Notes under the pieces: model-generated
Database searches by the model: none
Seen by the model: only the letters and a program-made list of their open reading frames with translations
Told to the model about the DNA's origin: nothing
Origin: an uncultured Verrucomicrobiae bacterium
GTDB taxonomy: Bacteria; Verrucomicrobiota; Verrucomicrobiia; Limisphaerales; Palsa-1400
DNA length: 64,000 nucleotides
Assembly (NCBI GenBank): GCA_963707025.1
Contig: CAVPOM010000016.1
Span: 1-64,000 of the forward strand
Reading direction: 5' to 3'
Part shown: in pieces, positions 16,881-21,298 of the stretch
Layout: each line of letters opens with the position of its first letter
How positions within the stretch are numbered: position 1 is the stretch's first letter
Translations under genes and position numbers: made by a program

Positions 16881-17168
16881 TCATTTGGCTTTGGCCTTCA
16901 CTTTCCTGATCGCGTCATTCAGAAGGACCCGCTGCTCCTCGCTCATTTTCGCGGCGTAAGCAAAACGCTGCAAGGCGGGCAGGGCCTCGGCAAACTTGCC
17001 CGCCTGGATCGCGGCGATGCCTTGATCCAGAAAGGGCCGCGCTTCCGGCGCGGCCGATTGAAAAGCGCTTTGCAGTTTGGCCGTGTCAATCTCCTGGTTC
17101 GAGCAACCCGTTGCGCCCCACGCCATCAACCCGGCCAGGAGCAGGAGTGGCAGCAGCATTTTTTTCAT
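16881..17168 (-). CDS. Small lipoprotein
   Basis: MKK + hydrophobic stretch + lipobox ATGC; helical mature part. Confidence 0.75.
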   Translation of the reverse strand: MKKMLLPLLLLAGLMAWGATGCSNQEIDTAKLQSAFQSAAPEARPFLDQGIAAIQAGKFAEALPALQRFAYAAKMSEEQRVLLNDAIRKVKAKAK

Positions 17169-17339
17169 GGACGGCCTTTCTTATCAATATGGCGCACGCT
17201 ATGACTCAAGTTACCCCAGGGGCCGCGCGGAGTCGAGATATAACCGCGCTCCACTGCGCGTTGAAGTGCCGCTTGACACTGCTGCCGGCGTCAGGGGCAA
17301 GAAGGCCACAGGAGTGCGCCCGTCCCCGGGGAATGGCGC

Positions 17340-18827
17340 TTAAATAAGGGAAGCCTTTCTTTTGGCCCGGGCCAGACGGCGGCGTTTATTGCGGCTCCAG
17401 GGCTGGCGGTATTGATGCCGCGATTTGTTCAAATGGGGGTATTTGGATCGTTTCTTGACAGCGCGCGGCTCCGCTCTTCCCGGACGCCTGGGCACCAGAT
17501 CGGTCGCCAGCCTTCGGAGCAGCCGCTGCCATAATTGGCGGCGCCGTCCCCCTTTGTTCCGGGCGTGTCCGAGTTGTGCCAGTGCCTGCGTCCATTGCCG
17601 GAAGGCGTCCAGGCTGCCTTTGAAACTGATCCGATCCAAGTCCACGTTCTGGCTTTGCGCGGCTTCGGCCATGATCCAGCGCAGGAAATTATGGGCGGTG
17701 AGGAAGAGCAGGAGTTCTTTCTCCACCATGCGGGGACAGAGGCAATGCAGGCTCTGCATGCCCAGGGTGGTTTTGAGATCGTCCAGGCACAGTTCCATGC
17801 GCCAGCGCCGGGCATAAGCGGCCGCCAGTTCCTCCGCTGGAAAAAGCGCCGCATCCAACAGGGTCGTGACCAGGGTCAGGTGGCGGGTGCGGAAGCCGGC
17901 CCGGCTCAGGCGCGCGCGCAGCACCCGCACCGTGATCTGCGGCGGCAGTCCGAGCCATTCCAGGAACGAAAGCAGGGGCGAAGGCCGGCCGGGTTTGGAC
18001 CAGGTAAAGAGCGCGTCCCAGTGACCCAGGCGTTGGCGGGCCTGGCGGAAATCCACCTTGCGGTTGCGCACGGAGACCCGCGCGAGCAAATCCACGCCCA
18101 GGAGTTGGAGGACGGCGGCGATAATATAAACCCCATAGGCGCGGTCGCCCAAGAGGATGTCGCCGGGGTGCAAAGCCGAGCGCAAGCCGTGGAGAAACAG
18201 AGCCAGTTCGGAGGAGCGCAGGCTGCCGGTGGCTTTGGCCAAAAGGGCGCCGCTGGCGGCGGAGAACAGAGCCACCACGCGCAGGTGGGGAAAGCCGCCG
18301 CCGGGCTGCAGGCTTTGGCTGGGGGGAAAGGCCGCCCGATTGGCCGGGGTGTCGGGCAGGTGGGTGCCGCTGCCATCGACCGCTTTCAACGGGCGGCCCT
18401 GTAGCAGCGTACTGGCCGGGGCGCGCTTTTCGGCGCTGTCGGCGCTGGCCGCGAAGGCTTGCTCCAGCAAGGCCAGGGGGAGTTTGGCGCGGGCCTGGCA
18501 ATAGGCGCTGCTGTCCGGCTCCGGTTCCGGGCCTTGGACCAAGGCCAGCAGGGCCTGCACCTGAAGGACGACGTGGCGGCAGGAAGTGTTGGCTTGGAAG
18601 ACTGGCCAGACCCAGCACCACCAGGTGCGAACCAGAGTGTAAACCTGCTCGCGGGAGTAGTCGCCGGCGGCCGGTTTTCGCAGGAGGTCGGTGGGCAAGG
18701 CGGGAGCCAGGCGGTCCTCGATCTGACTCAAGGTGGCGTGACGGAGGCGCGCCAGGCTGTGGGCACAGCGGCGGCCCGCCGCCGCCAGACGGGGCCGCCA
18801 GGCCGGGAAGAAGGGGGTGTCGGGCAT
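17340..18827 (-). CDS. IS4-family DDE transposase
   Basis: SAYCQARAKLP, AVDGS, LGDRAY and YREK motif YARRWRMELCLDDLK; C-terminal RRPGRAEPRAVK; start at ATG 18827 (MPDTPFFP) inferred. Confidence 0.95.
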   Translation of the reverse strand: MPDTPFFPAWRPRLAAAGRRCAHSLARLRHATLSQIEDRLAPALPTDLLRKPAAGDYSREQVYTLVRTWWCWVWPVFQANTSCRHVVLQVQALLALVQGPEPEPDSSAYCQARAKLPLALLEQAFAASADSAEKRAPASTLLQGRPLKAVDGSGTHLPDTPANRAAFPPSQSLQPGGGFPHLRVVALFSAASGALLAKATGSLRSSELALFLHGLRSALHPGDILLGDRAYGVYIIAAVLQLLGVDLLARVSVRNRKVDFRQARQRLGHWDALFTWSKPGRPSPLLSFLEWLGLPPQITVRVLRARLSRAGFRTRHLTLVTTLLDAALFPAEELAAAYARRWRMELCLDDLKTTLGMQSLHCLCPRMVEKELLLFLTAHNFLRWIMAEAAQSQNVDLDRISFKGSLDAFRQWTQALAQLGHARNKGGRRRQLWQRLLRRLATDLVPRRPGRAEPRAVKKRSKYPHLNKSRHQYRQPWSRNKRRRLARAKRKASLI

Positions 18828-18851
18828 AAGGCGGTATATATACCGCCTTAT
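18826..18851. promoter_or_regulatory. Perfect 26-bp palindrome between the divergent IS genes (putative operator)
   Basis: ATAAGGCGGTATATATACCGCCTTAT equals its own reverse complement. Confidence 0.75.
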
Positions 18852-18876
18852 TGACACGTCTGCTACTCTTTTCTTT

Positions 18877-19224
18877 ATGCCGACTCACAAAACAACCCGG
18901 CCAGCCCAATGGCAGGCCCAATACGCCCAATTACGCGACCGGCTGGCCAGAACCGGCTGGATCAGCGAGGGCTACGTGCAAGACCGCGGCCCCGGAGCAG
19001 GCGGCCTTTGTTATCAGTGGACCCGCAAGGTCAAAGGCAAAACGGTCAGTGTCGCTCTCTCCAAAGAACAATATGAGTGGCTCCATGACGCCATTGCCGA
19101 GTGGCGGGAGGTGCAAGCCACCATCAAAGCCATGCAACGCTTGAGCCGTCAGGTCTTGTTTGAAACCATCCCGCATCCCCCGCGTCGTAAGAGGCTGGGT
19201 AAGAAAGTTTTAGGTCTTATTTAA
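18877..19224 (+). CDS. IS-borne small basic accessory protein, DUF6788-like
   Basis: 115 aa from ATG 18877; CYQWTRKVKGKTVSVALS motif followed by amphipathic helix; stop codon inside right TIR. Confidence 0.75.
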   Translation: MPTHKTTRPAQWQAQYAQLRDRLARTGWISEGYVQDRGPGAGGLCYQWTRKVKGKTVSVALSKEQYEWLHDAIAEWREVQATIKAMQRLSRQVLFETIPHPPRRKRLGKKVLGLI

Positions 19225-19233
19225 GCGCCATTC

Positions 19234-19335
19234 CCCGAGGACGGGCGCAGCAGCCTTGGAAACACGGCGCGGCGGTGATTTTCCTGAGCACCCAAACAAT
19301 CCCTGGCTTGCTGCGGCCGGGGACGGCCGCACTCC
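19234..19335. repeat. Right part of an inverted REP doublet disrupted by the IS (left half-REP at 17311-17330)
   Basis: ggagtgcgcccgtccccggg | IS | cccgaggacgggcgcagcag ... ttgctgcggccggggacggccgcactcc (19308-19335). Confidence 0.75.
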
Positions 19336-19414
19336 GCCGCAGTAGTCTCAAGATGCTCCACTCCGCGTTGGACAAACCGGCGCGTGCCGTGGCAACTTCC
19401 CGCGCCGGTTTCCC

Positions 19415-21298
19415 ATGAAGCTGAACCATCAAAAACTCATCGCCGCCGCGGCCGCCGGTCTGGCCTTTCCAGGCGAATTGATGGCTGGCAAAAGGCTGCT
19501 GCCGCAGTTTGGCGGGGCCGCCTCGGTTTGGTGCTGCACGGTTCTTTTCTTTCAATTGGCCGTCCTGGCCGCTTACTTTGGATGCTGGCGGCTGGGCCAG
19601 ATGAAGGCGGGAACCAGAAATCTAATCCTGGCGGCCCTGGGTTTGAGCGGGTTTCTCACCTTGGCCTTTCCGCTGCCAGTGTTGGAATGGCTCCCGCTGG
19701 AATTGCAACCGCTGGCCGCGCTGCTGCCCTTCGCCGGATTGGCCATCGGCCTTTTTTGTGCCACCCCTTTGTTGCACCAACAACAGGCCGATCGCCTCGA
19801 TTTCACCATTTACGCCTGGTCCAACGCGGGCGCCTTGGCCGGACTGCTGGCCTATCCGTTCCTGGTGGAACCGTTCACCGATCTGAGGATGCAAAACTGG
19901 GTCTGGGCCGCGGGCGGTTCGCTCCTCTGCCTCCTGGCCCTGCGCGCCCGCGCGGCCGCTCCCGCCCTTTCCCCGCCGGGCCGCGCCGGCCTGGGCCGCA
20001 CCCGCTGGCAATGGTGGGTTCTTCCCGGCCTGAGCAGCGCGACCCTCCTGGCCACCGCCAATCTGCTCAGCTTCGAAGCCAGCGCCGGCCCGCTGACCTG
20101 GGCCTTGCCCCTGGCCTTGTTCCTGGCCACTTACGTTTGGGCCTTCTCGGGCGACCGGCGGGCTTCCTGCGGCCTCATCGCCACGCTCGGACTGCTGGCC
20201 TTGATCGTGTCACATTTCATCGTCGAAAAGCGCAGCGCCTCGCTGCTGGCTTTGGTCTTGATCGCCGGGGGCGCGACCATGCTGGCCTGCCATGTCTGGC
20301 TGGCCGCGGCGCGCGACGAAAACACCCACGGCTTTTACACGGCGGCGGCGGCGGGCGGCGCCATCGGCAGCGCCCTCATGGTGCTGGTCATTCCGCATGT
20401 CACCGACGGGCCGGTGGAATTTCCCATTCTGACCCTGGGGACCTTGTCCATCGCCGGGTTCCGTTGGAGCGGGCGGATCCTCCGGCCCATCCTGAGCACG
20501 GCGGCGGTCGTGGCCATTGGCTCCACCGTGGCGGCCGAATCCTCCGGGCGCGCCACGGAAGTCGCCCGCGCCCGCACCCTCTACGGTTGCTGGCGCGTCA
20601 CCCGCGAACCGCACAGCCAGCGTTACCAACTCATCAACAATGCCACCCTGCACGCCGAACAAGACCGCGCCAATCCCCAGGCGGCCACCACCTACTACGG
20701 GCCGGAAACCGGCTTCGGCCAATGGCTGCGGGAAATGCAACGGACCCATGCCGCGCTGGACGTTGCGGTGGTGGGGCTGGGCGCCGGCACCATCAACCGC
20801 TTTCTCCGGCCGCAGGATGCCATCACCTATTACGAGATAGATGCCAAGGCGGAAGAACTGGCCCTGGCCTGGTTCACTTATCTGCCGCGGGAGCGGTGCC
20901 GGGTCATCCTGGGGGACGGCCGCCAATCGCTGCAAAAGGAGGCGGGGGGGCGGTTTGACATTATTGTACTTGACGCATTCACCGGCGACGCCATTCCCTC
21001 CCACTTGTTGACACGCGAGGCCGGCGCCATTTACCTCCGCCGCCTTAAGGCGGGCGGCCTCCTGGCCATCCATATCACCAACGGGCATGTGGAACTTTGG
21101 CCGGTGGCCGAAGGATTGGCCCGCAGCCTGGGCCTGGGTTGCGAGTATGACAAAAATGGCATCATCGAATGGGCCATCCTGCGGGCCGGCCTTCCCCCGC
21201 CGGCGGGCCGCGTCCTGCAATGGACCGATGAACGCAACAGCATCGTCTCCGTGCTCCGGCGCGGGCCGCGCGAGAAAACCAGTCTCCCGCAGAATTGA
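19415..21298 (+). CDS. Membrane protein fused to spermidine-synthase-like SAM-dependent domain
   Basis: LLPQFGGAASVW, YAWSNAGALAGLLAYP multi-TM N-terminus; TTYYG, VVGLGAGT, YEID, GDGR, LDAFTGDAIPSHLLTRE. Confidence 0.85.
   Translation: MKLNHQKLIAAAAAGLAFPGELMAGKRLLPQFGGAASVWCCTVLFFQLAVLAAYFGCWRLGQMKAGTRNLILAALGLSGFLTLAFPLPVLEWLPLELQPLAALLPFAGLAIGLFCATPLLHQQQADRLDFTIYAWSNAGALAGLLAYPFLVEPFTDLRMQNWVWAAGGSLLCLLALRARAAAPALSPPGRAGLGRTRWQWWVLPGLSSATLLATANLLSFEASAGPLTWALPLALFLATYVWAFSGDRRASCGLIATLGLLALIVSHFIVEKRSASLLALVLIAGGATMLACHVWLAAARDENTHGFYTAAAAGGAIGSALMVLVIPHVTDGPVEFPILTLGTLSIAGFRWSGRILRPILSTAAVVAIGSTVAAESSGRATEVARARTLYGCWRVTREPHSQRYQLINNATLHAEQDRANPQAATTYYGPETGFGQWLREMQRTHAALDVAVVGLGAGTINRFLRPQDAITYYEIDAKAEELALAWFTYLPRERCRVILGDGRQSLQKEAGGRFDIIVLDAFTGDAIPSHLLTREAGAIYLRRLKAGGLLAIHITNGHVELWPVAEGLARSLGLGCEYDKNGIIEWAILRAGLPPPAGRVLQWTDERNSIVSVLRRGPREKTSLPQN

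Follow-up and report, generated by a model that had tools for sequence, protein, structure and literature searches.

We describe an insertion sequence (IS) of the IS4 family that carries, divergent from its transposase gene, a gene for a small basic protein of the DUF6788 family. The element is 1903 bp long and occupies positions 17331-19233 of a 64,000-nucleotide stretch of DNA from an uncultured Verrucomicrobiae bacterium (GenBank assembly GCA_963707025.1, contig CAVPOM010000016.1, positions 1 to 64,000), referred to here as the window. An initial annotation, made from the letters alone, suggested an integrated two-component IS. This is supported by the presence of both genes in 17/17 copies in the genome, by a layout that is conserved in relatives whose transposases are mostly 40-58% identical, and by the grouping of the two-gene elements in a single clade. 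The annotation further proposed that the small protein is either an autorepressor, binding a palindrome between the two genes, or a factor that steers insertion to repetitive extragenic palindromic (REP) hairpins. The former is the best-supported model, with DNA binding and repression inferred from conservation and a dimer model; the latter finds no support. We think it probable that a dimer of the small protein binds the palindrome and represses both genes in all copies of the element, and that the transposase alone reads a CCC-N6-GGG pattern in the stem of the REP.

Much of the anatomy first proposed for the element is borne out (Table 1). Perfect 18-bp terminal inverted repeats (TIRs) enclose a DDE transposase gene on the minus strand and an open reading frame (ORF) of 115 aa on the plus strand, whose product is basic (21 K+R versus 9 D+E). 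The stop codon of either gene is a TAA within its own TIR, and the distance between the two start codons, estimated at about 50 bp, is 49 nt. This gap holds the perfect 26-bp palindrome and a TACTCT hexamer 7 nt 5′ of the small-gene ATG. The DUF6788-like assignment was also correct, as the protein matches Pfam family PF20586 with 32.3 bits against a cut-off of 27.2, over profile positions 49-100 of 103 only. The palindrome, an extended -10 promoter and the DUF6788 gene make up a cassette.

The two-component proposal also held up among homologues. Genome contigs were searched with the small protein and the best 80 of the 134 stretches with a relative were kept, mostly from Verrucomicrobiota assemblies. 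A divergent transposase homologue, full length or partial, stands beside 68 of these 80 small genes. The remaining 12 comprise five at a contig end, four (in two genomes) with an unrelated IS701-like/IS4_4 transposase, and three where the transposase is lost but the palindrome is kept. The stop codon of the small gene lies 12 nt from the element end in 74/79 loci, and that of the transposase likewise in 38/52. From the transposase side, there were matches in 37 of 401 sampled genomes of the phylum, with 29 loci retrieved from outside this genome. The full-length matches of at least 40% identity with room upstream have the palindrome in 4/4 cases and the small gene in 3/4, the fourth being at a contig edge; a fifth match has half a palindrome, also at a contig edge. 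Nine matches at 31-39% identity have the same type of TIR shortly before the start codon, and neither the small gene nor the palindrome. A metagenome scan with the transposase found only two distant single-ORF elements. A FastTree phylogeny of 63 transposases places the single-gene elements outside a single clade of two-gene elements (support 0.98), and on this tree the cassette would have been gained once in this IS4 clade. In four loci (L067, L074, L081 and L063) most or all of the transposase has been lost and the palindrome and small gene are retained. Such derivatives may be kept by their hosts, if the protein represses in trans.

The palindrome was searched for in the 77 loci with room upstream, the window included, using a pattern that required TTGAC, and was found in 73. 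Of the four misses, two are a single mismatch away from the pattern, the third has been displaced by another insertion and the fourth is N-masked. The six inner base pairs hardly vary among the 47 distinct palindromes (44-47/47 per position). Mismatches and compensatory changes are tolerated in the outer pairs, and the 4-nt centre is unconstrained, with 20 different centres. Invariant inner pairs around a free centre make a pattern as for a dimer-binding site. The palindrome does cover the TATATA just upstream of the transposase ATG, as first noted, but a role for TATATA as a promoter element is not supported, given these variable centres and the lack of a canonical sigma-70 promoter. Full-length palindromes are at a nearly fixed distance of 24-28 nt from the small-gene ATG; the transposase start is shifted about 55 nt from the palindrome in one lineage. 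The 16-bp core of the palindrome has no occurrence in the genome outside the element, and with the element masked the remaining genome has only four perfect palindromes of at least 26 bp. A binding site for a host regulator was considered and rejected, because the operator core is lacking in the rest of the genome.

Directly 3′ of the palindrome is an almost invariant TTGAC that is absent from the initial annotation. It is found in 76/77 loci; the search pattern called for it, but three of the four palindrome misses have it as well. TAnnnT occupies the -10-like position in 45 of 47 distinct intergenic regions. The spacer between TTGAC and this hexamer is 7 nt, versus a peak of 16-17 nt in host promoters genome-wide; in the window (18851-18869), TTGAC is exactly one helical turn (10 bp) nearer the -10-like hexamer than in host promoters. 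An ordinary -35 role for TTGAC was rejected, as there is no conserved TAnnnT 16-18 nt downstream. No Shine–Dalgarno sequence is visible before the small gene, and the arrangement suggests that its transcript is leaderless.

Purifying selection acts on the small gene (median pN 0.21 and pS 0.72 for nonsynonymous and synonymous change, with pN < pS in 41/41 comparisons), and the median identity of its protein is 71% versus 48% for the transposase. At least 4978 of the 4987 candidates scored are relatives of the small protein, and DUF6788 is found on 19% of the members of the nearest Atlas cluster. This subfamily does not have the CGxxxCxC...HGP motif of many PF20586 proteins and ends in a basic tail, with the stop codon within the TIR. 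The plasmid collection gave no match to the small protein. The JGI label 'cyclopropane fatty-acyl-phospholipid synthase-like methyltransferase', which some homologues carry, was rejected (CMAS 17 bits versus a cut-off of 27).

The single-sequence fold of the small protein is of low confidence (pLDDT 64), and an AlphaFold2 model based on a 79-sequence alignment (pLDDT 88) was used instead. The predicted fold consists of a helix (residues 7-24), three strands (33-36, 46-52 and 55-61), a second helix (63-97) and a basic tail. The homodimer prediction scores 0.80, with 0.01 for the best control; the runs share at least 98% of their contacts, and the pLDDT is at least 85. In a calibration that is only roughly valid for the alignment used here, the mark was reached by 20/30 solved homodimers and 1/23 monomers. 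The protein is accordingly predicted to form a symmetric homodimer via its long helix, the two long helices being paired antiparallel with a three-stranded sheet left at each end. The conserved residues R37, W48, R50, K55 and T56 are absent from the named interface residues and are therefore candidates for DNA contact. Residue 44 is a named interface residue: its codon (window 19007) reads Leu in 5/17 copies, including that of the window, and Pro in the other 12 and most of the family. The Leu form may alter regulation.

To judge from the loci compared, the palindrome follows the small gene and not the transposase. The four loci with an unrelated IS701-like/IS4_4 transposase host the same small-gene subfamily; TTGAC and the -10 element are kept, the half-sites read AGGTA and residues of the sheet are changed (Q47 to P or A). 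More distant relatives of the small protein have other palindrome arms with the same GTA-N4-TAC core. PF20586 is found in 63 of the 401 genomes sampled from the phylum, and 18 of the 30 best loci have a strong palindrome at most 120 nt upstream, versus an expectation of 2.6 from shuffles; some of these loci have their downstream gene in tandem. Among 20 neighbouring ORFs that were tested, nine match transposase models (IS4, IS701, ISKra4, IS1634 and IS1380-like), four of them over the cut-off; these ORFs are divergent or in tandem. Elsewhere in this genome (G000:C18:411045-411300) there is a distant DUF6788-like ORF, below the Pfam cut-off, with an imperfect palindrome just upstream and no transposase seen alongside.

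We propose the following mechanism. A dimer of the small protein would bind the two GGCGGTA half-sites, covering the -35 zone of the small gene's extended -10, probably leaderless, promoter together with the transposase start, and would thereby limit its own synthesis. As the dimer would be diffusible, the transposase would be repressed in trans from all copies, resulting in copy-number feedback. The transposase, for its part, would cut CCC-N6-GGG in the REP hairpin stem with a 12-bp stagger, whichever the orientation.

The genome (6.96 Mb) contains 17 complete copies of the element that differ at only six alignment columns, which points to a recent expansion. All 17 are inserted at one position of one REP variant, none at a non-REP site, and duplicate its 12-bp core. 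The inverted REP doublet reported by the initial annotation is confirmed, but the proposed position in the centre of a hairpin needs refining, since the element duplicates the REP core instead of making a simple central insertion. The duplication is an exact direct repeat in 13/17 copies, has one mismatch in 2/17 and has its loop inverted on one side in 2/17. The window copy is one of the latter: the 4-nt loop of its right-hand duplicate is inverted, and its flanks consequently appear as an inverted repeat of 34 bp. Inverted flanking duplications occur in the window (19234-19245), in one further genomic copy (G000:C15:138214-140114) and in two of 37 relatives with both ends (L012 and L086); they would be explained by gene conversion from a copy in the opposite orientation or by a template switch in gap repair. 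A polishing artefact in the right flank is less likely, given contigs from two runs of one study (one possibly the source sample). In an independent assembly of public reads, from a run that is possibly the source sample, the depth of the element is about 20-25 versus 2-3.5 for the flanks, as for a multi-copy sequence. Two copies (G000:C6:45231-47132 and C6:343449-345350) have a common 1-bp insertion that frameshifts the transposase, possibly a sequencing error.

The element is found in both orientations relative to the REP (9 versus 8). A further 82 REPs (at most three mismatches) are free of insertions: the core is CCC..GGG in 36 and GCC..GGC in 29, which leaves 17 others. The insertions are exclusively in the CCC..GGG class (P = 2e-4 under no preference between the two main classes), yet the two classes fold equally well as single-stranded DNA (-11.5 to -11.8 kcal/mol). 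None of the roughly 2300 generic CCC-N6-GGG sites across the genome is used by the element, therefore recognition needs both sequence and REP context. A partner REP is 78-80 bp away in 15/17 copies. The REPs have the expected GGAG/GTAG foot and short hairpin, many copies, and 25 inverted doublets at about 60-bp spacing. One of ten matches to the Y1 transposase family PF01797 (G000:C10:162608-162844) has the same REP doublets on both sides, which confirms the REPs as being of the REP-associated tyrosine transposase (RAYT) type. This RAYT-like gene (L008, G000:C10:162398-163350), which lies amid doublets of the same REP family, is likely the source of the REPs.

Target choice can be compared across the clade. 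Single-gene sister elements of 1540-1590 bp have the same type of TIR as the two-gene elements and 11-bp duplications in four of seven fetched copies, several at palindromic GGGTCAG-type sites. Many two-gene members use GGGTCAG-type targets too, and the CCC-N4-6-GGG target class arises within the two-gene clade, apparently twice. A target duplication of 10-12 bp is exact in 22 of the 37 relatives with both ends. No small-protein column separates the target classes (13 CCC-target versus 18 GTCAG-target elements) and six transposase columns do so (13 versus 22 elements), including residue 349 in the YREK helix, although shared descent weakens these counts. We infer that target choice is the work of the transposase and not of the small protein.

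Several points weigh against a DNA-bound repressor. No canonical sigma-70 promoter was found in 17200-19450, and the transposase promoter was not located. TTGAC is not accounted for by simple repression, and the palindrome, which in most members extends over the transposase start codon, could function as an RNA hairpin. Since no solved fold matches the model, no structural homologue backs the DNA-binding function: in PDB and BFVD, Foldseek gave no match at E<=0.001, a wide VIA-align search reached a best Z of 5.8, to generic helical hairpins, and a profile search against PDB sequences reached a best E of 1.1. The weak, non-significant Foldseek hits include double-stranded RNA (dsRNA)-binding domains, and comparison of the fold with dsRNA-binding or AP2/integrase arm-binding domains yields non-significant hits only. 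The conservation count is biased, as most two-gene loci were found via the small-protein query, and the transposase-side sample is small. Some of the 18 palindromes upstream of PF20586 genes look like terminators, and two of the 30 loci were read in the wrong frame. Finally, the co-changes between operator and protein, like the diagnostic columns, are confounded by shared descent.

An overlap of this kind brings to mind IS10 and IS50, where an RNA hairpin hides the transposase start in read-through transcripts. The palindrome, with its 4-nt centre over the transposase ATG, might do the same, with the small protein binding or stabilizing the RNA. Compensatory A-T/G-C switches occur at the outer positions (8 and 4 of 47), and the helix-three strands-helix order resembles that of the dsRNA-binding domains mentioned above. 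That said, the six inner pairs are invariant and do not covary, the mismatches have no clear G-U preference on either strand (24 versus 15), several relatives have their palindrome tens of bases from the transposase start or 5′ of a tandem DUF6788 gene, and the small-gene transcript probably starts downstream of the palindrome. We consider this explanation unlikely. The near-invariant TTGAC raises another possibility, that the dimer on the palindrome is an activator or a switch that repositions sigma region 4 onto a hexamer one turn too near the -10 element; lambda Q and the DNA distortion of MerR-type regulators offer analogies. The TTGAC adjoins the palindrome with its short spacer in 76 of the 77 assessable loci, and the predicted dimer is held together by a long antiparallel helix pair. 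However, other DUF6788 promoters have a TTGAC-like hexamer near the canonical spacing, and a palindrome over the -10 element or start has the geometry of a repressor, so we would rate an activator as quite unlikely.

A role in steering the transpososome to REP hairpins draws on the fact that all 17 copies are in REPs and carry the gene, on the basic nature of a protein under purifying selection, and on mutations of IS91 orf121 that, according to earlier work cited in a preprint, alter target choice (bioRxiv 10.1101/2025.01.24.634351). Yet the single-ORF sisters use palindromic targets without the small gene and share the GGGTCAG-type class with many two-gene members, the columns that separate target classes are all in the transposase, and DUF6788 genes are also found beside IS701, ISKra4, IS1634 and other IS4 transposases. 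Steering therefore appears very unlikely. Still more improbable is that the small gene is carried along as a passenger and plays no part in transposition. Sister elements do transpose without it, and IS231-subgroup elements have passenger genes at the same position (PMC2266710). But the small gene shows stronger conservation than the transposase, nearly all loci have its stop codon within the TIR, and its family repeatedly adjoins transposases. Repression by a dimer bound to the palindrome accordingly remains the reading that we favour.

We also put forward a wider and more tentative idea, which we regard as possible rather than probable: DUF6788 may be an undescribed class of dimeric DNA-binding regulators, without a clear counterpart among solved structures and with an operator of its own, of the GTA-N4-TAC type, that serves as a plug-in cassette among the unrelated IS4, IS701, ISKra4 and IS1634 transposase families and gives them copy-number feedback. 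In the element described here it may in addition move sigma onto the misplaced -35.

Table 1. Features of the element and its REP target, in window coordinates
Feature	Position	Strand	Basis or remark
Left part of target REP: GGAG foot, stem arm, first 12-bp core copy (17319-17330)	17311..17330	+	
18-bp TIR at transposase 3′ end; right inverted repeat (IRR) by convention; contains transposase stop	17331..17348	+	
IS4-family DDE transposase, 495 aa counted from ATG	17340..18827	-	NF033592, PF01609, motifs
Perfect 26-bp palindrome, putative operator, core GGCGGTA-N4-TACCGCC	18826..18851	strandless	overlaps transposase start codon and small-gene -35 zone
TTGAC(A), almost invariant; 7 nt 5′ of -10-like hexamer	18851..18856	+	
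Extended -10-like element TG-n-TAnnnT, 7 nt 5′ of small-gene ATG	18861..18869	+	
Basic DUF6788 protein, 115 aa; predicted homodimer	18877..19224	+	PF20586, structure model
18-bp TIR on 5′ side of transposase; left inverted repeat (IRL) by convention; contains small-gene stop	19216..19233	-	
Right part of target REP: second 12-bp core copy (loop inverted here) and remaining REP	19234..19252	+	
Partner REP of inverted doublet; G-variant, no element insertions in this genome	19309..19335	-	

The assignment to the IS4 family is based on several lines of evidence. The transposase scores 159 bits with the NCBIfam IS4 model NF033592 (cut-off 115) and has a Pfam PF01609 match. Its DDE triad (D151, D228 and E345, from sequence motifs) fits the family spacing D(60-110)D(100-150)E, and Y338-R341-E345-K352 fits Y(2)R(3)E(6)K. 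It is a single ORF of 495 aa in 15 of the 17 genomic copies, as is typical of the family, and the 12-bp target duplication is, as usual for these elements, about one helical turn long. The TIRs, with AATG at positions 2-5 and ATA at 14-16, fit the subgroup IS4 ends -AATR--------WTW---- in Table 1 of PMC2266710. The length and the second gene fall outside the 1400-1650 bp without a second gene of subgroup IS4, an excess that is due to the added cassette, as the size of the single-gene sisters indicates. The nearest named match of the transposase in the plasmid collection is the ISAcma16 family, at 33.5%.

The host genes on either side are divergent and intact, and code for a 95-aa putative lipoprotein (16881-17168) and a 627-aa membrane protein (19415-21298) with no Pfam match. 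An Rfam scan of 17000-19600 found nothing near a gathering score. Elsewhere, at G000:C14:77240-77694, lies a 455-bp non-coding element whose TIRs are one base off those of this IS. This element and its roughly 15 partial relatives, which are outside REPs, are remnants of a related IS4 element and resemble miniature inverted-repeat transposable elements.

A dedicated trans-acting repressor would, if true, add a further level to the self-control of transposons in Verrucomicrobiota and neighbouring lineages, common to unrelated IS families, and would give a function to a protein family that is found in 63 of the 401 genomes sampled from the phylum. The 115-aa protein and its perfect 26-bp site, absent elsewhere in the genome, form a clean test pair with natural variants of both. 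Furthermore, as one clade contains two target classes, how IS4 transposases recognize REPs becomes a testable question.

To our knowledge, IS4-family elements have been described as single-gene, with known controls that operate in cis or via RNA. DNA-binding repressors of transposase expression that the element itself encodes are known from IS1 (InsA) and the Tn3 family (TnpR, which is divergent in Tn3). InsA is a frameshift product of the transposase gene that binds the ends, and TnpR is a serine recombinase; the small protein matched neither of these in Pfam or NCBIfam. The Orf121 protein of IS91 is also small (about 120 aa) and IS-encoded, and is reported to lower transposition (bioRxiv 10.1101/2025.01.24.634351). 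It differs in belonging to an element with a HUH transposase and in being encoded by a tandem, co-transcribed gene. The likeness is by description only. PMC3942029 mentions four ISKra4 elements whose extra genes are of unknown function. A literature search with the names DUF6788 and PF20586, with ISfinder and subscription journals outside its range, found no paper, and one on divergent small ORFs in IS4 elements found none, although the supplements of PMC2266710 and PMC3942029, outside the search, may list such ORFs.

REP targeting has been published for ISRm22, an IS4-family element of Sinorhizobium meliloti (Tobes and Pareja 2006, PMC1525189). There too, all copies are in REPs at a fixed point of the palindrome and some have non-matching direct repeats, but ISRm22 belongs to subgroup IS4Sa and has 6-bp repeats, and the available text mentions no accessory gene. 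As described for subgroup IS4 (De Palmenaer et al. 2008, PMC2266710), the elements have a single ORF, a length of 1400-1650 bp and 10-13-bp duplications, and some have strong specificity for target arms. Our element shares with these the form of the ends, the duplication length, the DDE spacing and the YREK motif, and differs in its 1903 bp and in the second, divergent gene with its palindrome. In summary, it is an IS4-family member with subgroup IS4 ends, which a conserved regulatory cassette takes beyond the sizes described for single-gene elements. To the known systems this work adds a gain dated to one IS4 clade, an operator that is sharply defined and has natural variants, and evidence that separates regulation from targeting.

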